A stretch of 24,558 nt of DNA from a virus (taxonomy: Duplodnaviria; Caudoviricetes): the IMG/VR virus record IMGVR_UViG_3300025396_000072, positions 1 to 24,558 of that record. One strand, given 5' to 3'. The notes below the pieces were generated by a model that saw only the letters and a program-made list of their open reading frames with translations, was not told where the DNA came from and made no database searches. Of this stretch, positions 5,531 through 24,263 are shown piece by piece; the stretch's first letter is position 1; each line of letters begins with the position of its first letter. The position numbers and the translations under genes are program-made.

Positions 5531-6298
5531 ATGACAATCATTGCAAAAGAACTACGCGCCAGCGAATCCAATCACTGGTACACACGCGATGGGCAACCTC
5601 AGTACACTGTGCCCTCAAAGAAGGACGGCTCCCCTCGGAATGCCACCCTTCGTGATGCACGGGAATTGAACCTTGTCCCATCGGTCACCACGATCCTCAA
5701 CATTACGGCTAAACCGGCCCTGACTCTCTGGTTACAAAAGCAAGTGTTGCTGGCCGCCCTGACGCTGCCGCGCCGCACTGAGGAACCAGAAGAGGACTAC
5801 ATCGACCGGATCATCAAGGATGCAAAGGAAGAGGGCAAACGCGCTGCGGATGCCGGTACAGACATCCACGCGGCCATACAATCCTTCTATGAGGATGGCC
5901 ATACCCAACAACATCAAAAGACTGTGCAAGCGGTTCATGAGGCTTTGCAGGAACACTTCAAGCGCCGCGAGTGGAAGTGCGAGAAGTCCTTCGCTCACGA
6001 TCTCGGTTTTGGTGGCAAGTGCGACCTCTATACCCCCGCGGGTGTGGTGGTTGACATCAAGACCAAAGAATTCACAGATCCGACTAAGGTTGACGCTTAC
6101 GACGAGCATTTAATGCAACTCGCAGCCTACCGTGTTGGACTGGGAATCCCCGACGCCCGGTGTGCAAACATCTTTGTTTCGCGCAATGTCCCCGGTTTAG
6201 TTCGGATCATCGAGTGGACACAAGATGACCTCAACCGAGGTTTCGACATGTTCATGCATCTTTTACGTTACTGGCAACTGAAGAACAACCATGTTTAA
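5531..6298 (+). CDS. PD-(D/E)xK exonuclease (Cas4/RecB-like recombination nuclease)
   Basis: 'PSVTTIL', 'GTDIH', 'E...GKCD...VDIKT', 'QLAAY' motifs; GAGG RBS. Confidence 0.88.
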   Translation: MTIIAKELRASESNHWYTRDGQPQYTVPSKKDGSPRNATLRDARELNLVPSVTTILNITAKPALTLWLQKQVLLAALTLPRRTEEPEEDYIDRIIKDAKEEGKRAADAGTDIHAAIQSFYEDGHTQQHQKTVQAVHEALQEHFKRREWKCEKSFAHDLGFGGKCDLYTPAGVVVDIKTKEFTDPTKVDAYDEHLMQLAAYRVGLGIPDARCANIFVSRNVPGLVRIIEWTQDDLNRGFDMFMHLLRYWQLKNNHV

Positions 6299-6504: not shown

Positions 6505-8166
6505 TCAAGGGTTTGGTTGGGCGGCTTGTAGACCAGCAGCCCTTGAAAGTTCAGCGGAGGCTCTCGGTTGCAGAGCCTTCATCCAATCTGGGCGCTCGGT
6601 AGCCAATTTAGTCAAGGCTCCCAAAACAGGCTTATTGTAGATCGCACCGGCTGTCAGTGTAGGAACGGCCACAGCGTGTAGCGCGCCGGGGATACCGGCC
6701 AACCCAGCGCCACCCAAACCAAGAAGGCTCATAACGCCTGTACGCTCGGCTGTACCACTGCTTGGCAGGTTACGACCCAAGACATCCAACGCAGCCTGAG
6801 ATTCGTCATACAAAGGAGCCTGACCCTGCAAGAAGGCGTTTTTGCCGCCCTTTGCTTTGATGCCTGACTCCAACTGACCCGGCGTGAAGACTCGGCCCTC
6901 AGCCCCCAGCATAGAGGCTGCCTGCTCGATAGGCAAGTGACGGCGGAAAGCCAAGTGAATGCCTTTGAGTTCTTCGGCCAGTTTAGGGTTTTGAATGGCC
7001 AACTCTTTACGCAACTCGCCTTGTAGGTCACGAAGAGCCACACCAACATCATAAGTCTGAGGGTTCTTCAGATAGTTGTAGGCAGTAGCGCCGAGGTTCT
7101 TCTCAGCGTTGCGGAACTCTTCGCCGGTCATTGACTTGCCCTGAGCCATGTTGGTCAGAGGGTCGAGGATGTGCTTATCGAATTCCTTCTTGACCATGCC
7201 AGCAAGGTCGTAACCGGGGGCAGAGGGCAACCCTTGAGTCACGTCAGCCAGTTTGTCATTCAGCACCTTCACCGTGCTTGTGAATCCGCTTGGGTTCGTT
7301 GGGTCTTTATAGACCATGTTGCCCAAACTCAACTTAGGCGTGATGGTGTCATAAGCGTTTGCAATCGCATCATTCATGACCTTCATCATGTCTTCGCCGG
7401 CCTTAACACCCTTACCCAGTTGTTGACCCATAGGAGCCAGCACACGGTTGACCATCGCGCGGTTGAAGTCCTCGTTGACGCCCCTGAAGGCGTTCTGGAT
7501 CATGCTACCGGCCACCGGCAGGCTAGTCATGGCCTTCTCGGCTTTCTGGATGCCTTCGCCGATAAAAGGAACGTCGCTCAATAACTGGCCCGGAGTGAAC
7601 CGAGTCATGCCCAAATCCTTCAATTTTTGAACCGAAGCGGAAACGATTGGGTTAAGAATCGCTTGTCCGGCCTTGCCTAAAACAGCGCCAGCACCAGCAC
7701 CTTCAGCCGTTTGGATAGCCTTGTTTTTGAGGAAATCACCATATCCCTCTTCTGTACCCTCAGTCGGGGTCAGGGCTGCCGCCTTAGCGCCTTGGAGTGC
7801 CATTCCACCCAGAGTACCAACAGCCTTGGCCTTACCCAAAGGAATTGGGTTTGCGATCTGGCCAGCGATGTCTGCCACGGTTCCCGGAGTACCAGCGCCG
7901 AGGTACTGCAAAGCCTCTTTGGCCTCGTTAAGTTTCTTGGCAGGGGTATTGATACCAAAATACTGAAGCGCCCCAGCCATAGGGGTTGCAAGGCCAAGAA
8001 TACCGCTCTCAGCAACATTAAGAGCCTTTTCACCCATTGAGGGCTTGTAAGGCTCACCCATGTGGATAACTTCATGTTCTGGCGGAGTATAGGGAACCGC
8101 CCCCTCGGGTGGTGGAGGGAGCGAATCAACTGGAACCGCGCCGGCAGGGGGTGGTGGCAAACTCAT
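6505..8166 (-). CDS. internal virion / DNA ejection protein (553 aa)
   Basis: Start moved to ATG at 8166 (ATGA overlap). Gly/Ala-rich helical protein with hydrophobic C-terminal segment; last gene of the structural operon, the position of podovirus ejection proteins. Confidence 0.65.
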   Translation of the reverse strand: MSLPPPPAGAVPVDSLPPPPEGAVPYTPPEHEVIHMGEPYKPSMGEKALNVAESGILGLATPMAGALQYFGINTPAKKLNEAKEALQYLGAGTPGTVADIAGQIANPIPLGKAKAVGTLGGMALQGAKAAALTPTEGTEEGYGDFLKNKAIQTAEGAGAGAVLGKAGQAILNPIVSASVQKLKDLGMTRFTPGQLLSDVPFIGEGIQKAEKAMTSLPVAGSMIQNAFRGVNEDFNRAMVNRVLAPMGQQLGKGVKAGEDMMKVMNDAIANAYDTITPKLSLGNMVYKDPTNPSGFTSTVKVLNDKLADVTQGLPSAPGYDLAGMVKKEFDKHILDPLTNMAQGKSMTGEEFRNAEKNLGATAYNYLKNPQTYDVGVALRDLQGELRKELAIQNPKLAEELKGIHLAFRRHLPIEQAASMLGAEGRVFTPGQLESGIKAKGGKNAFLQGQAPLYDESQAALDVLGRNLPSSGTAERTGVMSLLGLGGAGLAGIPGALHAVAVPTLTAGAIYNKPVLGALTKLATERPDWMKALQPRASAELSRAAGLQAAQPNP

Positions 8167-9740
8167 TTGACGGCCTCTCCTGTGTCTTGATAGACCCAAC
8201 CGGTGTTGGATTGGTTGGGAACAATTACACGGTTATTGTAGAAGTGAGGGACTGCTGCCGCTGCTGGGGCTTGATTGGCGGTAGGGCCAGCACCAAGTCG
8301 AGCAGCGCGCGCCTTTGCTCGCTCCATAGTTTCAGTGATGGTTTTGAGTTGCTCATCAAAAGCGGCCCGCGACATGCCAGTATTGAGTTTGGCAATCGCG
8401 TCGGTGATCTTGTCGCCTTCCTTATTGGACAAGGAACCGAGGCCACGCATGGCTTGAACGTTAGACAAGAATGCAGCCGACTTGAGAGATTGCAACTCGT
8501 TTTGGTAGTTGTAAGTGTCAGTGCCGGGGATCAACTGAGTCGGTGTCAATGAAGACAAACCATTCACTCGACCGGGGTGGTTAGCAATAACCTTGACCTT
8601 GTCGATCACACTTTGAGCGGCATCCCCAGCCTGACGTGCAGCCTCTTGTGACTGTTGCGCTTTATCGTTGTACTTGTCTTGCTCAATCTTGAGTTGGGCG
8701 CGACGAATCTCGTCTTGATTTTGCGCCGTAGTCTGATGCAGTTGAAGCGACAGATTGGCCATCATTTGGCGGAAGGCGCGCTCGTCTTCTTTACCTGATA
8801 AAGTACGCTCGTCATTGCGGTGGGCAATTTCAAGTTGCATGTACTTCTCAGCCAACTTATCGGCCTCTTCTTCTTTGCCAGCGTATGCGCCATTCTTAAA
8901 TTGCTTGGCAAGACGTTCTGCACCGGCCTTAACGGCTGGGTCAGTAGCAGTCATCACCAAGGCATCAAAAGGCGTACCGGCGGAGTCTGCACCGAAAATA
9001 CCAGCCTTACGCAACTCAGTAACCGACTTAGCAAACTCAGCGGCCTCTTTAGTACCACCGATCTTGAGCAAGTCAGAAACGGCCATCGGATCAACCGAGT
9101 AACCTGATTTGGGCTTGCCGTTCTCGTCAACACCAGAATTAGGAACAATGGCCTTGGCGCGCACATCTTGCAGTTGCTGTTCTTTCTGCTGTGCAAGGGC
9201 TTCCATCATGTACTTGGGATCACCCGTCAACTGAGACAACTGCTTGGCCGCTTCTGGGTTGTATTGAGCCGTCACTACACCAGTCTGCGGATTAGTAGTC
9301 TGAGTGATCAAGTTGTTGGATGCCTCACCCAAAGCGCGCTGCTTGGCCGTGTCAACCATGCCTTTACGCAGTTCCAATTCCAACTGGTTGCGGCGAATCT
9401 CTTCAGCGTTTTGTTGATCAATTGACTTTTGGTAGTTGCCAGCAGCAGCGCCCAAGGATTCACCAAAGCCACCAGTGCGAGTGGGGGCCAGAAAGCCTGC
9501 GGCCAACGCCATCAAAGATGGGTCAAAGACCTGACTCTTGCGGGTCTCCAAAGAGTTGGCCATCTTCTGCATCTGAGCATCAAGTTTGGCCTGATAAGCG
9601 GCCAAATCTTGCTGTGCAGTAGAAGCCTGTTTCTCAGGAAGACTTGCCCCTTGAATGTTAGAAGCCTCGGCTGTATCCGCCTCAGCGGTGGCTGCACCAG
9701 AGGGCTGGGCAGCAGAAACTTGTGATAAACCACCAGCCAT
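8163..9740 (-). CDS. internal virion / DNA ejection protein (525 aa)
   Basis: GAGG RBS; 'ALAAGFLAPTRTGGFGESLG.A' segment followed by Gln/Ala-rich coiled coils. Confidence 0.65.
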   Translation of the reverse strand: MAGGLSQVSAAQPSGAATAEADTAEASNIQGASLPEKQASTAQQDLAAYQAKLDAQMQKMANSLETRKSQVFDPSLMALAAGFLAPTRTGGFGESLGAAAGNYQKSIDQQNAEEIRRNQLELELRKGMVDTAKQRALGEASNNLITQTTNPQTGVVTAQYNPEAAKQLSQLTGDPKYMMEALAQQKEQQLQDVRAKAIVPNSGVDENGKPKSGYSVDPMAVSDLLKIGGTKEAAEFAKSVTELRKAGIFGADSAGTPFDALVMTATDPAVKAGAERLAKQFKNGAYAGKEEEADKLAEKYMQLEIAHRNDERTLSGKEDERAFRQMMANLSLQLHQTTAQNQDEIRRAQLKIEQDKYNDKAQQSQEAARQAGDAAQSVIDKVKVIANHPGRVNGLSSLTPTQLIPGTDTYNYQNELQSLKSAAFLSNVQAMRGLGSLSNKEGDKITDAIAKLNTGMSRAAFDEQLKTITETMERAKARAARLGAGPTANQAPAAAAVPHFYNNRVIVPNQSNTGWVYQDTGEAVK

Positions 9741-9742
9741 AA

Positions 9743-10759
9743 TTACCTCACTAAGTTGCCGTTTAGATCATAGATATGACCTTTGCCATCATGATAGGCA
9801 ATGACTTTTCTTGGAACCGCGCCATGTGCATGGCAGATCTCGCCGCCTTCTTTGTAGCCAACAGAACCACCGGCAGCGCATTTTGTGGCCTTGGCCCCGG
9901 TGAATGCGCCGATCAATGAACCCAGACCAGCGATCTGAGACAGCGGTGAATTGGAATATGCACCGGGGATAGGGCCGCAGAGTTGGCTGACTGAACCGGT
10001 TGGGACTTGATAGCCCTGCAACAACTTGGCGTACTGCTGAGTCTGTGTCATTGGATAGCACAACTCTTTTTGGCCCTGAGCCTGACACGCAGCACCCAAG
10101 GTATTGAGTTCGTTCAAACCAGCAATACCGACTTGGTTTTGTTGAGCGCCGAGATTACCCAAGGCTTGGCCAGCAGACAACTCACGGGACAAGCAGGTCT
10201 GAGCCTGACCGATCGCCTTGTTGTATTGGCAAGAAAGGTATTGAGCCTCTTGGCCGGTCAAGTTGGCTTGGATGCAACGCAAGGCGTTACCAGTAGCCTG
10301 AGCCTGACGTTGAGAACCGAATTGGCCTGTAGATGCACCAGCGGCATTCAGGACAGGCAAAACGTTCTGTTGCAGGTTTTGCTGAGACAGGCGTTGCATG
10401 TTGCCGATTACGGCGCAAGCATAGGGGTTTAGATAGCAGCCCACAACTTGATTGGCCGTTGTTGCTCCTGCCTGACCAGTCAACTGGCCAGCAGCGCCCA
10501 TAGTTCCAGCGCCCGAAAATGCGGCGCAAGGAGCCATTGCAAATGCTTGCTGCTGTAATGGGCTTAAACCAGCCACTCCGCCCTGTTGTACGGCGTTTTG
10601 ACCAAGATTAGCAATATCTTGGAGGTAGTTGGTATAGAACTGAGGCGCAGTGGTCTGCTGGCTCGTCGTTTGGGTAACCGATGGAAGGGCAGACCCTTGA
10701 AATAAAGAGCCGCCGGAGCAGAACTTAGGCAACCCGCCTTTAGTTTTACGCTTTGCCAT
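9743..10759 (-). CDS. Gln/Gly/Ala-rich DNA ejection/pilot-type protein (338 aa), unusually Cys-rich
   Basis: 'YLNPY', 'GQFGSQR', 'SPLSQIAGLGS' motifs typical of podovirus pilot-like proteins; 12 Cys. Confidence 0.65.
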   Translation of the reverse strand: MAKRKTKGGLPKFCSGGSLFQGSALPSVTQTTSQQTTAPQFYTNYLQDIANLGQNAVQQGGVAGLSPLQQQAFAMAPCAAFSGAGTMGAAGQLTGQAGATTANQVVGCYLNPYACAVIGNMQRLSQQNLQQNVLPVLNAAGASTGQFGSQRQAQATGNALRCIQANLTGQEAQYLSCQYNKAIGQAQTCLSRELSAGQALGNLGAQQNQVGIAGLNELNTLGAACQAQGQKELCYPMTQTQQYAKLLQGYQVPTGSVSQLCGPIPGAYSNSPLSQIAGLGSLIGAFTGAKATKCAAGGSVGYKEGGEICHAHGAVPRKVIAYHDGKGHIYDLNGNLVR

Positions 10760-13454
10760 GTTTGTACCCTTTCATGTATTCCAAAGGAGACTTAGCCTTT
10801 GGTGGAATTTTATCGACCGGCGCGGATCGTTTGTGCGCTCGGATCTGCTCACGCATGTGATCCAGCATCTTGGAGCCAGCCTTGTTAGAACCATCACCCA
10901 AAGCGGCCACCGTGTCGGCATCAATCACATATTCGCCGTCAGCCAAGAAGGCTGGGATGTCGTCTGATTGACCTGTACCGGGTCCATTTACAGCAGAACC
11001 AGCCTTGAAGTCAATCCGGCCCTCACGAACTGGATTAGTTTGGTGGCTATGCAAAGTGTGAGGCATATCACCCCCGTGCTTCATGCCGGGAGTAGGCATA
11101 TTCAGATTCTCAAGCGGATCTTGAGGGATGCCATAGGTGTAGTGGGCAGAACCACCGGTTGCTTTGTGCATTGGCTCATAGATTGGGATCAAGTGAGCGG
11201 GATCCATGCGGTGAGGGGCGTGAATACCACCACCATGAGCCTGATTGATCGGGGCGTATGTACCACCACCAACTTGAGCCGGCTCTTGATAGGGAGCGTT
11301 ATAGCCAGTCACGCCGAGGTTAGACATCAACTGTGCATTTGGCGTGTAGTTAGTGCGGTTGTTATATTGGCAAGCCTGCACAATACGGGCTGGGCCAACA
11401 CCAAATGAGGTGCATTCTCCGGGGATTGCGGCCAGTTTGGCCATGCAAACTTTGTAAGGGGCAGAACCAGAAGAACCGCCACCAAAACCGCTAGTCAAAG
11501 CGCTACCGAGCAAAGTACCAACCAAACCACCTTGAACCGTGCTATTCCCAAGCAAACCCTTGATGGTATTCAACAAGGAAGTATTCTGCGGTGTCTGATC
11601 ATTTGCGTTTTGTTTTAACGTTGCATCTACTTGCTTATTAGTTGGCACTGAAGTGGCCAAGTTACTTGCGCCGGTGCTACTAATAACGTTGCCATCTGCA
11701 CCGGTAACCGTTGTGCTTCCATCGGATTTAGTCGTAACCGTTGTGCCGTTGGAATAGGTTGTCACCATATTACCGTTGGCATCAGTTGTTGTGGTTGCGT
11801 CGGCAGATGAAGATGTGTAGGGAGTTGCGGTAGACAAAATCGTTCCATCGCTTGCAACCAAGTCACCATTGGCGTTGTACGAAACAGCATTGCCGCTTGA
11901 GTCAACCTGCTCGCCAGAACTGTTGTAATACAGATTAGGGTTGCAGCAATCTTGAACCAAACCGCCATCATCATAATGATGTAAGCGGCCGCCATGAGCA
12001 TATTTGTGGATACCGAAGCCGGCAGGCATAGCGCCACCGGACTTCATACCGTAAACACCGCCACCCATAGCCATCATGGTGACCAATCCGCCTTCTTTGC
12101 AACCATAATCACTGCCACCAGAAGGCAGGTTAAAAAGGGTATCTGTTGATGTGTTATCAGTGCTGCTAGTGTTATCCGTAGTATTTTGAGCGTTGTAATC
12201 AGCGGCAGATACATAAGTACCGTTATCGTTAACAGCAACCAAAGTACCGTCAGACGTATATACATTACCGTTTGCGTCTTGGAAATAACCTTTGGCTCCT
12301 GTGTCGGTATTTGCGGCGGCGCTTGTATTAGTAGCGCTACCGGCATTTGCGGCAGATGTCGCACCAGTGTTGCCGTCTGTGGAAACTTGATTCAAACCGC
12401 CCTTGCTAGTCAAATCTGTGCCAGTTGCATTTGTTTGATCGGTAACAGCATTTGTAGTTGCACCTGTGGACAATGAATTACCGTTGGCATCAACTGGTAA
12501 ACCAGTAGCAGCATCTACATAACCGCCATAACCATCAGGATTAACCTTGACTTCTTCGCCGTTGCTATTGGTGACGGTCTGAGTTGTGTCGGTGACGTTT
12601 GAAGAAGATCCCTTTTCGCCACCAGACAAAGTTGTATTACCGTTTGCATCAGTCGAGTACAAAATCTTGCCATCAACTTGGCTATAAGTAGCAGAACTGC
12701 CATCAGGGGCAGTAATCGTGTAGGTCTGGTCGCCGTTGTCAGTAGCGCCTTCAGGAATGGGAAGCAAGTTTTCGGTGCTTGTTCCACCAGAAGTTCCACC
12801 TGAAGTACCGCCGGATGTACTACCAGTGCCACCCTTACCGCCACCAAAAATAGAACTTAGTGCACTACCAATAGCGCCGCTGTTATTAGCGGCAAGGTAA
12901 CCAAGCCCACCTAAACCGGCGGCCGTAGCAAGAGTATTTAGGACGTTAGAGCCGCCACCAGTAGTGGATTTTGTACCGGTTGTAGTGGTTCCGGTGGTGG
13001 AGCCTTTGGTGCATTTGGTGCACTTAACGCCTGTGCCGCCTCCAGTTGTACCACCAGTTGTGCCGCCAGTATTTGTTGTCCCGGGCTTGGCAACCGTAGC
13101 GCCAGTAGCAGTTGTAGCAGGCAGATTTGTTTTGCCAGTATTCTGATTAGCCAGATTGGAAACGGTTCCCAGACCACCAGTTCGTGTACCGGTCATTGCG
13201 CCAGCATTACCTGCGCCACCAGAAACAGAGCAAACGTAATCCTGTCCGACTCCAGTACCACCGGGGCGTCCAGCGTAGTTCAAACCGCCGGGAGATACGT
13301 TGCCGTACCAAGTAACAGCAGGGGGCGCATTCATCGGTGTGCCGCAACCCTGATATTGGGAGTTGTAAATAGCAGAACCGGGCTGTGCCAATGGATTAGC
13401 ACCCATGTCAATCGTAGGTAATGGGCTTCCAACCCGACTTGTCAAAATAGCCAT
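10746..13454 (-). CDS. large low-complexity internal virion protein (902 aa) with repeated xxxGG motifs and C-terminal tape-measure-like GPGTG.SD domain
   Basis: Thr/Gly/Asn-rich; DANGN repeats; C-terminal 'GPGTGQSDDIPAFLADGEYVIDADTVAALGDGS'. Confidence 0.65.
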   Translation of the reverse strand: MAILTSRVGSPLPTIDMGANPLAQPGSAIYNSQYQGCGTPMNAPPAVTWYGNVSPGGLNYAGRPGGTGVGQDYVCSVSGGAGNAGAMTGTRTGGLGTVSNLANQNTGKTNLPATTATGATVAKPGTTNTGGTTGGTTGGGTGVKCTKCTKGSTTGTTTTGTKSTTGGGSNVLNTLATAAGLGGLGYLAANNSGAIGSALSSIFGGGKGGTGSTSGGTSGGTSGGTSTENLLPIPEGATDNGDQTYTITAPDGSSATYSQVDGKILYSTDANGNTTLSGGEKGSSSNVTDTTQTVTNSNGEEVKVNPDGYGGYVDAATGLPVDANGNSLSTGATTNAVTDQTNATGTDLTSKGGLNQVSTDGNTGATSAANAGSATNTSAAANTDTGAKGYFQDANGNVYTSDGTLVAVNDNGTYVSAADYNAQNTTDNTSSTDNTSTDTLFNLPSGGSDYGCKEGGLVTMMAMGGGVYGMKSGGAMPAGFGIHKYAHGGRLHHYDDGGLVQDCCNPNLYYNSSGEQVDSSGNAVSYNANGDLVASDGTILSTATPYTSSSADATTTTDANGNMVTTYSNGTTVTTKSDGSTTVTGADGNVISSTGASNLATSVPTNKQVDATLKQNANDQTPQNTSLLNTIKGLLGNSTVQGGLVGTLLGSALTSGFGGGSSGSAPYKVCMAKLAAIPGECTSFGVGPARIVQACQYNNRTNYTPNAQLMSNLGVTGYNAPYQEPAQVGGGTYAPINQAHGGGIHAPHRMDPAHLIPIYEPMHKATGGSAHYTYGIPQDPLENLNMPTPGMKHGGDMPHTLHSHQTNPVREGRIDFKAGSAVNGPGTGQSDDIPAFLADGEYVIDADTVAALGDGSNKAGSKMLDHMREQIRAHKRSAPVDKIPPKAKSPLEYMKGYKHGKA

Positions 13455-13455
13455 T

Positions 13456-15273
13456 TCAGCCCCCTTGTTTCAAAATTGCCGACAAACCAGAGATGTTCGT
13501 TATCGGCGTTAATGTGCTGACATTCACCTTGGCTGGAGGCGCTGTCGTGGTTGTTGCTGCCGTCTTAGCCGCTGTGCTTGTTGTTGCTGGGCTTAGACCT
13601 GTAGAGTTTACTGCGGCAGGCGTCAAACCGGAAATGTTTGTTCCAGTAGATACGGCCTGACTTGCGTTTGCTGGTGCGGCAGTTGCTGCCTGTGAAGCCT
13701 GCGCTAACGGTGAAATTTCTTTCATCACAGCGGCAGTTGCCGGGGCAGCAAGCAAAGAGAGTGGGTTCGTGCCACCAGTATTTGGGTTTAATTCATTTAA
13801 ACCGGTATTGACTAGACTACTGATCCCAAGGTTTTCCAATTTTGCTGTCGGGTCTGTACCACTAATCACACTCTTTGACAGAATCTTGGCGGCATTGCTG
13901 GCCAAGTTGGAACCAGTCAAATCTTTGGTTTCCTGACCAACGACGTTGCCTAAGACATCTGTTCCAATGTTTCCAGTCTTTCCGGTCAATACATCCGATG
14001 TTATTGCCTTAGTAGCAGCGCCAGCCAAGTCAGAGCCGGTCAAGTTAGTGGCTTCTGTTCCTGCAATACCTGTAAATGCGCCAATACCAGCGTTTTCTAA
14101 TGCTTTGGTGAAGTCACCGCCATTGGTTACAGTATTCAAGGCCGTTTGGGCAACCAACTTCTGAACTACTGGGTTGGCATCAGGCAACAACGTTGACCCA
14201 AGGTTTTGAGTGATCGAAGAAAGAGGGTTGGTCAATAAAGAACCATTGACCGATCCGTTTGTGGCGGCCGTCACAGCGTTGCTCAATGATGCGCCGTCAG
14301 TCGTCATTGTGGCGGCTGTGCTGGCATTTGAGATGGCTGCGGCGTCAACAGTAGCCGAGTTGTTAATGACCGTGGCAGCGGCGTTTTGAGCGGCTGTGTT
14401 GGTGGCCAAGGTATCGCCAGTTGCTGTTAATGTGGCCTGACCATTCGTAACGGCTGTCGCTGCATCTGGAAGATTTGTAGCGGCGGCTGTAGTGCTAGTT
14501 GTTCCTGCGGCTCCTGTAGCCGCTGTAGTGTCGGCTCCAGTAGTTGCAGCGGCGTTAGTACCAGCAGCGGTAGCACCAGTTGCAGTTGTGCCTGCTGTGG
14601 TGGCTGCGGGGACTGTACTAACAGTGCCATCTGCGGCCGTTGTTACAACCGATCCATCCGGCATATAAGAAACAACGCTGCCATCAGAAAATGATTGCAC
14701 CATTGCGCCGTTTTGCATCGTTGTTGATGTAAGCGATGGAGCCGCATTTGTTGCGGCGGCAGTATCGGTTGCTCCTGTTGCTGCCGTAGTATCTGTTGCG
14801 CCTGTAGTCGTTGCGGCCGTAGTGTCAGTCGCTCCCGCAGTGGTGGCGGCAGTGTCAGTTGCTCCAGTTGCAGCCGTGGCGTCTGTAGCACCGGTGGCCA
14901 ATGTGGCGTCAGTAGCAGCCGTTCCTCCGGCTACCGAAGCAGATCCAGCACCGGCGATTGTTGTGCCATCAGCGGCGATGATAGAACCATCGGCGGCTAC
15001 GGTCGCGCCGTTTGCTAATACGGAGCCGGGAATAAGACTACTGCCGGCATCTAAAGCCGCCCCGGTTCCCGCAGCAGCGGCATCCCCCCCTAAAGCAGCA
15101 AGTATTTCCGGCCCGGCAAATAGAGCAGCGCCAGCGGCTACCAACATGACTGGATTAGAGGCAACTTGCTCAACAACTTTGCCTGCCGCCTGCACGACGT
15201 GAGAAACAACATTGCCAACAGATTCAACTACGTTGCTGATTGCTTTACCAATATCATGAAAAACGTGGGTCAT
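13456..15273 (-). CDS. Ala/Thr-rich putative virion protein (605 aa)
   Basis: AGGAG RBS and ATGA overlap; amphipathic then hydrophobic N-terminus; GATD[AT] repeats; ends in LKQGG. Confidence 0.65.
   Translation of the reverse strand: MTHVFHDIGKAISNVVESVGNVVSHVVQAAGKVVEQVASNPVMLVAAGAALFAGPEILAALGGDAAAAGTGAALDAGSSLIPGSVLANGATVAADGSIIAADGTTIAGAGSASVAGGTAATDATLATGATDATAATGATDTAATTAGATDTTAATTTGATDTTAATGATDTAAATNAAPSLTSTTMQNGAMVQSFSDGSVVSYMPDGSVVTTAADGTVSTVPAATTAGTTATGATAAGTNAAATTGADTTAATGAAGTTSTTAAATNLPDAATAVTNGQATLTATGDTLATNTAAQNAAATVINNSATVDAAAISNASTAATMTTDGASLSNAVTAATNGSVNGSLLTNPLSSITQNLGSTLLPDANPVVQKLVAQTALNTVTNGGDFTKALENAGIGAFTGIAGTEATNLTGSDLAGAATKAITSDVLTGKTGNIGTDVLGNVVGQETKDLTGSNLASNAAKILSKSVISGTDPTAKLENLGISSLVNTGLNELNPNTGGTNPLSLLAAPATAAVMKEISPLAQASQAATAAPANASQAVSTGTNISGLTPAAVNSTGLSPATTSTAAKTAATTTTAPPAKVNVSTLTPITNISGLSAILKQGG
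14745..14915 (-). repeat. degenerate coding tandem repeat (GATD[AT]xAxT units)
   Basis: Protein 'ATDATLATGATDATAATGATDTAATTAGATDTTAATTTGATDTTAATGATDTAAAT': five GATD units; boundaries approximate. Confidence 0.75.
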
Positions 15274-15716
15274 TTGGCGCTCCTTGCTGGGCCTAAAGTG
15301 ATCGTCACTTGATAAGAACCGCGGTTGGTGCGCTGGACTACATAACCAGTTTTACTGGTATCCATGCCTTTAAAAACATACTTGAGCGTTTGTAAAACGG
15401 CAGGGTCTTCAATTTGCGCCACCAAGTTATCAAAACCGACCTTGTAGGCAGCAGCGAAGAACGTGCGAACGTTCTGGATAACGTTGCGGATTGTGTCAGC
15501 GTTGTACATCGCAAAGTAACCAAATCCGGGGATGCTTGACTTATGGACGATGAAGATCGAATTTCCTTCTTGCAACTGCCAAGTGTTAGGCAAAGAAAAT
15601 TCAAGTTTGACGCGCGCCAAAGCCTCGTTAAGAGGCATTTTTGGGTTTGAATTCCTGCAAGCAATGGCCAAGACATTCAAACTGGGTAGTTTTTTAATCT
15701 TACTGTTAAACAGCAT
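15270..15716 (-). CDS. hypothetical protein (148 aa), possibly GNAT-like assembly factor
   Basis: ORF track 15270..15746; likely start MLFNSK at 15716; sits between nozzle and ejection genes, where podoviruses often carry a GNAT-fold protein (inference). Confidence 0.55.
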   Translation of the reverse strand: MLFNSKIKKLPSLNVLAIACRNSNPKMPLNEALARVKLEFSLPNTWQLQEGNSIFIVHKSSIPGFGYFAMYNADTIRNVIQNVRTFFAAAYKVGFDNLVAQIEDPAVLQTLKYVFKGMDTSKTGYVVQRTNRGSYQVTITLGPARSAK

Positions 15717-15987
15717 TGGTATTCCCATTTCCATTGGTTTGGTCAATGTTGGCGTTCACCTGATTCACCAACGCTGTGGCCCAATCCTCCCAATTTTCAA
15801 AGAGGTAGGGGTTTGGAGCCTGCTCATTTGTAAAAAGATCGATGCCTCGGATACCGACAGCAAAGTCTTGCCAGTTCATGTCGGCGGTTGGGATCTGCAA
15901 ATTCTGAGCAGCATAGCCCTCGCACATGAGCGAAGCCCACGACTCGAACGTGTGATACCGTGGGTCGTAGACAAGAGCCAGTGCCAT
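15706..15987 (-). CDS. small hypothetical virion-associated protein (93 aa)
   Basis: TGATG coupling to the nozzle stop; Trp-rich 'P.PY.FENWEDWA' motif. Confidence 0.7.
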   Translation of the reverse strand: MALALVYDPRYHTFESWASLMCEGYAAQNLQIPTADMNWQDFAVGIRGIDLFTNEQAPNPYLFENWEDWATALVNQVNANIDQTNGNGNTNAV

Positions 15988-22709: not shown

Positions 22710-23108
22710 TCAAGACTCCTTGGGTGGCTCTACCACCGCTGGTTCATCAGCCACAGCAGGGGTGCTATCAGGAAGAACCTCAGCAGCGGGTGCTTCACCA
22801 GCATCATTACTACCAGCATCAGCAGAAACGGCAGGAGCATCGGCAGGGCTTGCCTCAGCAACTGGAGCATCAGGCTCGGCGGCGGGAGCCACTGGAGCAA
22901 CGCAAGTAAAGACTCCACCGGTGGCTACCACAGGGGCTGTAAAGGTATTAAGGGGCACGGGAACCGTAGCGGGCTGGGGTGGGTTAACCACGGCAGGCTT
23001 TGGGTCACCGGTACGGCTATCCAAGAAGTCGATGAACTTGTGGATTTCATCAGAAACTTCGGTCTCAAAGTCTTGGAGATGCAAGCGCAAATTGTCAATG
23101 AAGGACAT
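22710..23108 (-). CDS. acidic Pro/Ala-rich, probably disordered protein (132 aa)
   Basis: AGGAG RBS; helical N-terminus then low-complexity A/P/D/E tail. Confidence 0.7.
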   Translation of the reverse strand: MSFIDNLRLHLQDFETEVSDEIHKFIDFLDSRTGDPKPAVVNPPQPATVPVPLNTFTAPVVATGGVFTCVAPVAPAAEPDAPVAEASPADAPAVSADAGSNDAGEAPAAEVLPDSTPAVADEPAVVEPPKES

Positions 23109-23279: not shown

Positions 23280-23538
23280 GTTCAATTCCTAATTTGTTAA
23301 GGGTTAAAGGTGACTTAAAAGTGGCTGTAGAAGTTTCTCGGTCGATCGTCATGTCTGCATCACAGCAAACGTTCCAATCCTCAGAACCCTCTTGTTTTTC
23401 GCTGTAGGAGAAGCACTCAAGACGAAAATGCTTGACGATGTATTCCTTCTCGCCCTCAAAGATGCGCCAGACATGCTCCATAGACCCACGGCCGGGAGCG
23501 CCTCGGGACTTGTTGAACCTGATGCGGTACTTAGCCAT
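23245..23538 (-). CDS. hypothetical protein coupled to the dioxygenase gene (97 aa)
   Basis: TGATG coupling; 'YRIRFNKSRG.PGRG..EHVWR.FE' motif. Confidence 0.72.
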   Translation of the reverse strand: MAKYRIRFNKSRGAPGRGSMEHVWRIFEGEKEYIVKHFRLECFSYSEKQEGSEDWNVCCDADMTIDRETSTATFKSPLTLNKLGIEHGQDHSQHTTA

Positions 23539-24263
23539 CAGACAATCTCCGCCTTTGACTCGGGAACTACAGCGTTGATTTGCTGATCATTCATTTTGAC
23601 ACCGATGTTGAAGTGGATAAACGTCAATGGTTTCAGAGAACCGTGACGAGTAAATGAATGTGGCAACCAAGAATTGGCAAAAAATATCATGCCGGGTTCT
23701 GGCGTGAAGTTAACCATGTTGCTGGCCTCAGACACATTAGCAATGTTATCTTCAGGCATGTGAGCCATCACCTTGCCGGGGCGAGGGTCATGGATCACCA
23801 CGCGCGAAGAGTCTGGGGGTACATCAATGAAGTAGAACCCTACGATTTGAGCGCCGTATGGGTGTACATGCTCATCCATAGCAGAGTGCTTATGGTGTTC
23901 TTGACCCCAAAACTCGGTGAAGAAAGTCACCTTGTCGATCATCCGAAAACCCTGAGCCTGAAGGATGTTCCAAGCGGTTCCAGCAATATACGAACAAAGA
24001 CCCTGCATACGAGGGTCATTGAATAGGTTACCAGTCATTACGACTGGATAGAGTTGGTTACCTAACTTGTCGCCGCTTTTCTTCTTTTCCTTCTTAATCG
24101 GGGCAATGTTCTCACTGAAAACAGCCCGAGCATCGGCTAAGAACTCTTCTTTCTTGATCGTATATATTGGGGTTGGGAAGTAGATGCCGGTGCTGAGTTG
24201 CTCCTGCGGCTTCTCTTCCTTTACCTCAACATCACCAACAACTTCGGTATTCGCAGTGCACAT
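23538..24263 (-). CDS. TIGR02466-like Fe(II) dioxygenase (double-stranded beta-helix fold)
   Basis: 'YFPTPIY', 'HVH', 'GFYFI', 'HDPRP', 'PEPG.IFF.NSWLPH', 'IHFN'; AAGGA RBS. Confidence 0.85.
   Translation of the reverse strand: MCTANTEVVGDVEVKEEKPQEQLSTGIYFPTPIYTIKKEEFLADARAVFSENIAPIKKEKKKSGDKLGNQLYPVVMTGNLFNDPRMQGLCSYIAGTAWNILQAQGFRMIDKVTFFTEFWGQEHHKHSAMDEHVHPYGAQIVGFYFIDVPPDSSRVVIHDPRPGKVMAHMPEDNIANVSEASNMVNFTPEPGMIFFANSWLPHSFTRHGSLKPLTFIHFNIGVKMNDQQINAVVPESKAEIV

Follow-up and report, generated by a model that had tools for sequence, protein, structure and literature searches.

A Gly-Gly motif and its partner module

We examined a window of 24,558 bases that is an entire IMG/VR record (IMGVR_UViG_3300025396_000072) and represents a partial phage genome. 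In particular, we focused on two adjacent genes, g902 and g338, on a short Gly-Gly motif found in both of their products, and on a small module at the C-terminus of the g902 protein. The minus strand carries lysis genes, then virion-structural genes (g220, g414 and g691; g220 matches phrog_2941 and g691 matches phrog_3287), two small genes, and then g605, g902, g338, g525 and g564 (Table 1). Gene order and the families of the neighbours agree, and the locus looks like the internal- or ejection-protein block of a short-tailed phage; because of this context, with its ejection-type and virion-structural neighbours, g902 and g338 probably encode internal virion proteins. (The portal gene falls outside the window.) The g902 protein is laid out as a variable N-terminal segment, a first motif cluster, a conserved core with a Gly-rich apolar stretch, a second motif cluster, and the module. 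We refer to g902 and its homologues as the domain protein; "pilot" is a label for g338 and its homologues that rests on position and on the first-pass annotation of this DNA.

Table 1 Features of the locus, with positions in the window and motif starts in amino acids (aa)
Feature	Position	Strand	Description
158-aa protein	15270-15746	-	between tail and internal-protein genes; homologues in 26/69 loci
g605	13456..15273	-	upstream low-complexity protein, 605 aa; C-terminal LKQGG not conserved
g902	10746..13454	-	902-aa low-complexity, probably internal (cargo/ejection-type) protein; PHROG tape-measure matches only at aa 814-872
Motif cluster 1 of g902	11961..12101	-	aa 452-498; CKEGG 452 (12101-12087), MAMGG 461, MKSGG 470, YAHGG 485, YDDGG 494
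Motif cluster 2 of g902	11070..11243	-	aa 738-795; QAHGG 738, KATGG 764, MKHGG 791
C-terminal module of g902	10749..11009	-	aa 816-902; FKAGS strand (816; 11009-10995), G-P-G-T-G-Q-S-D-D loop, G-E-Y-V strand, two helices
g338	9743..10759	-	next, probably internal, protein, 338 aa; pilot-like from position and earlier label; no family match
FCSGG of g338	10723-10709	-	aa 13
CAAGG of g338	9880-9866	-	aa 294
YKEGG of g338	9856-9842	-	aa 302
g525	8163..9740	-	ejection-type; phrog_2534, E 5.5e-26 (released on infection); homologues without tag enrichment; no Cys
g564	6505..8199	-	DNA ejection-type; phrog_26400, E 3.2e-07; no tag; no Cys

The first-pass annotation had described a run of x-[AK]-x-G-G motifs in g902. 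Every listed motif is present where it was placed (the earlier coordinates correspond to the last base of each 5-mer), but as written the loose pattern is not significant, because g902 contains 7 occurrences versus 5.2 in shuffles that held the Gly positions fixed (p = 0.26). The strict form [FYML][AK]xGG, in contrast, exceeds the shuffles (4 versus 0.66, p = 0.002). We collected 80 related IMG/VR loci, or 69 once duplicates were removed; since these loci are related, counts drawn from them are not independent. Among the non-redundant loci the strict motif occurs 131 times in the domain protein versus 23.7 expected (present in 63/69 loci) and 40 times in the pilot versus 8.4 expected (present in 24/64). 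The corresponding values are 1 versus 6.6 for the +2 proteins, 0 versus 5.4 for the +3 proteins, 1 versus 5.5 for the long upstream protein and 1 versus 8.8 for g691; the small g158 group, at 1 versus 0.4, is the sole other group above expectation. (Note that the low counts in the neighbours do not indicate avoidance, because control patterns are low there too.) As a conserved feature the motif is restricted to the domain protein and the next protein, the only two in which it is enriched, 5-fold. A further 74, more distant loci gave 123 motifs in 69,299 aa of domain proteins and 28 in 141,234 aa of neighbours.

The sequence logo that had been proposed as a check could be built across homologous loci and reads [MYFL]-[AK]-[DKERN]-G-G-x-[VAP]. 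Motifs occur in runs, with 31 of 84 spacings at 13 aa or less, and they can be found at extreme ends, 6 aa before the C-terminus in three pilot homologues and at the very end of gp66c of Caulobacter phage RW. Other parts of the earlier description fell away. The LKQGG that ends g605 had been counted as a tag and is dropped as chance, because 0/35 upstream homologues end in GG (1/35 has a motif); the motifs of g902 do not form two tight clusters, since cluster 1 packs five into 47 aa and cluster 2 spreads three over 58 aa; and FKAGS is not a free tag. It reads GG in 0/69 loci of the window's clade and is the module's own first strand, because the motif fills that strand in tape measures.

The annotation's tape-measure-type assignment of the C-terminal domain was borne out: residues 816-902 match PHROG tape measures and, among PDB sequences, JBD30 gp46, Douge gp16 (in two copies) and, with a weak score, lambda gpH. 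In these three tape measures the module lies close to the end of the protein. The module matches 2,622 database proteins and has matches in 228 records of cultured phages (of the 60 listed, most are annotated as tape measures), and one exact pattern is found in about 1,700 IMG/VR stretches; family scans returned no Pfam or NCBIfam model for it. The 111 non-redundant copies that we obtained by pattern search comprise 64 internal (tape-measure-like) and 47 C-terminal ones. GG stands just before the module in 52/64 internal and 13/47 C-terminal copies, and a second motif follows it in 40/64 and 1/47, respectively. Because GG precedes the module in 52 of the 64 internal copies, the first strand of the module in tape measures is the motif itself; together with the 40 second motifs, this makes motif and module one unit. 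The pairing is constant, and the two travel together across phages. In Pelagibacter phage HTVC103P, for example, the module ends an acidic multi-motif protein, gp79, whose gene lies between portal and scaffold (L082:6136-7431), and gp75 (L082:9718-9846) is a 42-aa basic protein with one motif. Caulobacter phage RW, which we take to be short-tailed, likewise has the module in a gene at a comparable position.

Across 73 aligned sequences the invariant polar columns are S830, D831 and E841, an invariance partly fixed by the search pattern used to collect the sequences. No invariant Ser-Lys, Cys-His or N-terminal Cys/Ser catalytic set was found among them, and searches of Pfam, NCBIfam and Foldseek gave no family or fold match between the module and known self-processing or Gly-Gly proteases (S24/S26, S74, Hint, C5/C48, C39). 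A predicted structure of the single copy, as the first-pass annotation had suggested, was obtained with a predicted local distance difference test (pLDDT) score of 78.5, but no sheet was seen in it.

The module often comes as a tandem pair, which is present in 118/120 best database homologues; a model of such a pair (pLDDT 70) has four strands, and Foldseek returned nothing meaningful for either the single-copy or the tandem model. In tandem loci the Ser-Asp loop is retained by copy 1, which reads G-D (74/74), whereas copy 2 reads G-E (74/74) and lacks the loop in a 47-row alignment. (These counts cover the 74 of 80 loci that could be parsed, and the loci were fetched with a tandem query and are therefore biased.) With a single-copy query, the 15 listed of 118 tandem database matches show the same reciprocal pattern. 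The linker between the copies often holds a decayed GG motif (L204-L283; proteins P0004-P0123). This natural tandem form, with Ser-Asp in one copy and Glu in the other, is new and points to a dimer. Because the two copies lose the Ser-Asp loop and the Glu reciprocally, the module may act as a dimer with a composite site, one unit contributing the loop and the other the Glu.

Relatives of the module and of its proteins

Profile matches to PDB sequences identify homologous modules, each preceded by an F/Y-A-x-G-G motif, in gp46 of Pseudomonas phage JBD30 (residues 1022-1066; PDB 8RK3; E 2.7e-12) and, as two copies, in gp16 of mycobacteriophage Douge (PDB 8ZDO; E 2e-28). The g902 module differs from both in its place at the C-terminus of what is probably an internal protein of a short-tailed phage, in a first strand of its own that reads GS, and in the free motifs repeated upstream of it and on the next gene. 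In the available part of the JBD30 paper the gp46 module is called a predicted "hook", with no peptidase motif, and cleavage at 1066 is only speculated upon (PMC11445458); the stated start of the hook, 1022, is the last Gly of its motif. For Douge gp16, only the last 42 residues are resolved, and the available part of the text does not mention cleavage (PMC13033339). Lambda gpH (PDB 8IYK) is a more distant case, with a weak profile match (E 0.004), a G-E-F-V strand at 754 and motifs at 733 and 778; unlike g902 it lacks the G-P-G..S-D loop and is cut during tail assembly. That cut is described, in the text available, as removing about 14 kDa from a Gly-rich region to leave gpH* of about 78 kDa, with site and catalyst stated to be unknown and the authors' own estimate of the site at about residue 710 (PMC12617516). 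By mass arithmetic, a cut after the motif at 733-737 would yield 80.1 and 12.2 kDa, and one after the motif at 778-782 would yield 84.9 and 7.4 kDa. Cleavage at the first motif would thus give masses near those reported, which is a new observation. Separately, a looser pattern finds 5 to 11 motifs in very long tape-measure-like proteins (2,000-3,500 aa; L095, L100, L104, L106, L119 and L130, around locus position 6000), with 11 in L106.

A cargo protein of Bacteroides phage crAss001, gp45 (PF25725; PDB 7QOG chain M; PMC10172136), came to our attention through an ESM feature search, in which PF25725 (crAss cargo protein 1) scored 0.85, a lead only. Like g902, gp45 is an internal protein punctuated by x-x-x-G-G motifs, with eight motif-like sites. 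Its residues 425-552 are modelled as a domain on the portal wing, in 12 copies (PMC10172136); residue 425 is the second residue of a motif, PF25725 starts at 424, and the domain has a G-[ST]-H-E loop and a G-E-V strand. The domain of gp45 differs in being larger, in having His instead of Asp, and in showing no direct sequence match to the module. PF25725 had no match in g902 or in the 73 aligned members, and none in L001, RW or HTVC103P; Foldseek with the module models did not return 7QOG. An intermediate G-P-S-H-E family is linked to the module with an HH probability of 87% and to gp45 with one of 49%; the direct probabilities are 1% and 0.2%. (Note that the search pattern that led to the intermediate family has G-P in common with the module.) Homology between module and gp45 is therefore tentative and transitive only.

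We also matched the matrix-assisted laser desorption/ionization peak lists of 13 crAss001 gel bands, as far as they are given in PMC6235969, to 34 crAss001 proteins. Portal (gp20), tail, capsid and polymerase proteins were recovered, and band 13 was gp29; in bands 1-12, gp45 was never above shuffled background. The absence of gp45 would fit processing, but only weakly, because gp46, which lacks motifs, is missing as well and only selected bands had been cut. Among 17 tryptic peptides of gp45 residues 1-421, 0/4 motif-spanning and 5/13 other peptides fall in ranges named in the available part of PMC10172136, a difference that is not significant; the motif-spanning peptides are the long ones, and that paper names examples only.

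The expectation that motif clusters bracket segments gained, lost or split in relatives held. Within the window's subclade the order of N-terminal segment, cluster, core, cluster and module is constant and the segment lengths vary. Three domain proteins (L033, L056 and L064) begin at the core, and the gene upstream of that in L056 ends 12 residues after a motif, a split after cluster 1; in some other relatives, homologous N- or C-terminal parts of g605 are fused ahead of motif and module. In pilots the motifs follow a conserved apolar helix, where many homologues end, and an N-terminal insertion in g338 ends in FCSGG, where most aligned homologues begin. The N-terminal extension of the L064 pilot has no motif. 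Such modularity is compatible with a tag and with a cut site alike.

The domain protein and the pilot share a second, new trait, a gain of cysteine that the other ejection proteins lack, since cysteine is confined to these two and nearly absent from the +2 and +3 proteins. There are 10 cysteines in g902 and 12 in g338, and none in g525, g564 or g605; 63/64 pilot homologues have none, and several of those in g338 align to conserved Asp, Gln or Thr. Of 65 non-redundant tandem loci, 18 have more than 1% cysteine in the domain protein, up to 114/577. In these 18 the pilot is 4.8% cysteine, cysteine accounts for 0/6,836 and 2/4,916 residues of the +2 and +3 proteins, respectively, and the module is spared. 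The gain is lineage-specific and lies in low-complexity segments, and in relatives cysteine reaches as much as 20% of residues (L266:4669-6402, L276:4381-6402, L280, L278, L211). Such segments resemble metal-binding or cross-linking polymers; our literature search found no paper on this gain.

Two known kinds of system resemble the locus. Like P22- and T7-type ejection proteins, the block follows tail nozzle- or adaptor-like genes, and two of its members match PHROG ejection families; the difference is that, in the literature searched, we found no account of a tag paired with a reader among those proteins. With siphophage tape measures g902 shares the GPG-SD-GE module and the motif before it, but g902 lacks homology over the long helical body, its own body is Gly/Thr-rich, and its neighbours are ejection-type and virion-structural rather than tail tube, chaperone or tip genes. 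No match to a tail tube or full tape-measure family was obtained among the 25 window proteins scanned. As for the remaining genes, the 158-aa protein had no match in Pfam, PHROG or NCBIfam, and its position is presumably typical of acetyltransferase-like genes. A 2OG-Fe(II) oxygenase (PF13759) is encoded at 23538-24263 on the minus strand, upstream of the lysis and tail genes, and a 132-aa Ala/Pro/Val-rich acidic protein at 22710-23108, also on the minus strand, has one x-A-T-G-G.

Possible docking or cleavage at the motif

We favour, at close to an even chance, a reading in which the motif serves as a tag for docking, is not cut and is recognized by the module as a dimer; that the small unnamed module shared with tape measures binds a Gly-Gly tag is likely. 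According to this reading, the peptide [FYM]-[AK]-x-G-G-x-[VLA] would be a conserved tag on two internal virion proteins that the dimeric module of g902 binds without cutting, so that the tagged segments of both proteins would be tethered together, perhaps to the portal, during head assembly and until ejection. The tag would bind as an added strand, its Gly-Gly backbone held by the invariant Glu and the Ser-Asp loop. Docking is favoured because motifs are clustered, because they are found at extreme ends and on tiny proteins, because no protease family or fold was found for the module, because the lambda copy lacks Ser-Asp, and because gp45 is modelled through a motif. Clustered and terminal motifs and tiny tagged proteins suit avidity better than the release of useful pieces. 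Several points weigh on the other side. The gp45 link is tentative, being transitive only, with PF25725 missing L001, RW and HTVC103P and the intermediate family's pattern sharing G-P; reciprocal loss in tandem copies is also expected of a composite catalytic site; cleavage of lambda gpH takes place close to its motif; structures of the JBD30, Douge and lambda tail tips do not resolve the module; and docking is less easily imagined as the task of a tape measure.

The first-pass annotation had proposed a polyprotein cleaved at the motifs, and a version of this idea, less probable than docking, remains a serious contender: the small module would be a self-processing protease that works as a dimer, and its composite Ser-Asp/Glu site would cleave the Gly-Gly motif both in its own protein and in the adjacent one, either inside the head or once ejection has taken place. 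In that case g902 would be a polyprotein and the tape-measure module would be excised between its flanking motifs. Self-cleavage stays close because of the reciprocal degeneration of tandem copies, the lambda masses (80.1/12.2 versus the reported ~78/~14 kDa) and the natural split in L056, 12 residues past cluster 1, alongside the three domain proteins that start with the core. The lambda fit must be read against the imprecision of gel masses and an estimate, in the part of PMC12617516 available, of about residue 710 rather than 737, and against a lambda copy without Ser-Asp. Similarly, the g338 insertion that ends in a motif where homologues begin speaks for cleavage, whereas the L064 pilot extension has no motif; and the place of the HTVC103P gene between portal and scaffold also speaks for it, but that phage's scaffold and capsid lack the motif. 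From crAss001, as far as the sources extend, come the failure of gp45 to exceed background in any of 13 bands, while portal gp20 was found, and the peptide contrast (0/4 versus 5/13), offset by the missing, motif-less gp46 and the small size of that contrast. The gp45 model runs through a motif, which counts against cutting, although cutting after ejection would reconcile the structure. There is, moreover, no known protease fold and no invariant His, Cys or Lys, and the core is only about 50 aa. We consider doubtful the bolder proposal that this unnamed, dimeric module of about 50 residues represents a new class of self-processing protease acting at [FYM]-[AK]-x-G-G through a composite Ser-Asp/Glu site, with podophage and crAss cargo being polyproteins and the module excising itself from tape measures.

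Two further explanations appear improbable. The free motifs might be no more than degenerate copies of the strand that opens the module, or else turns that act as flexible hinges, and nothing would read them; their identity with that strand in tape measures would fit, as would the lack of the strict motif in 6/69 domain proteins and 40/64 pilots. The motif, however, persists where the surrounding sequence can no longer be aligned, and it recurs on a second protein and on tiny ones; control patterns are not similarly enriched. Least probable of all, a separate phage or host protease might cut the motif and the module might serve only as adaptor or anchor. Gly-Gly-directed processing by separate proteases is known in adenovirus and African swine fever virus, and since the window covers only part of a genome, a protease may be encoded beyond it. 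None is present among the 25 window proteins scanned, and wherever the module occurs in unrelated phages and hosts the motif goes with it, mostly in cis.

Possible roles in cargo loading and tape-measure processing

Tape measures of long-tailed phages bear the pair of tag and module, as do internal proteins of short-tailed phages that are abundant in aquatic habitats and, probably, the cargo of crassviruses. We found no description of the motif-module pair in the literature searched, whose coverage mostly excluded subscription papers. If docking is true, it would explain how cargo is loaded into heads and offer a portable loading tag. If instead the module is a protease, it would give both the site (about residue 737) and the catalyst of lambda gpH cleavage, which are listed as unknown in the available part of a 2025 paper (PMC12617516).

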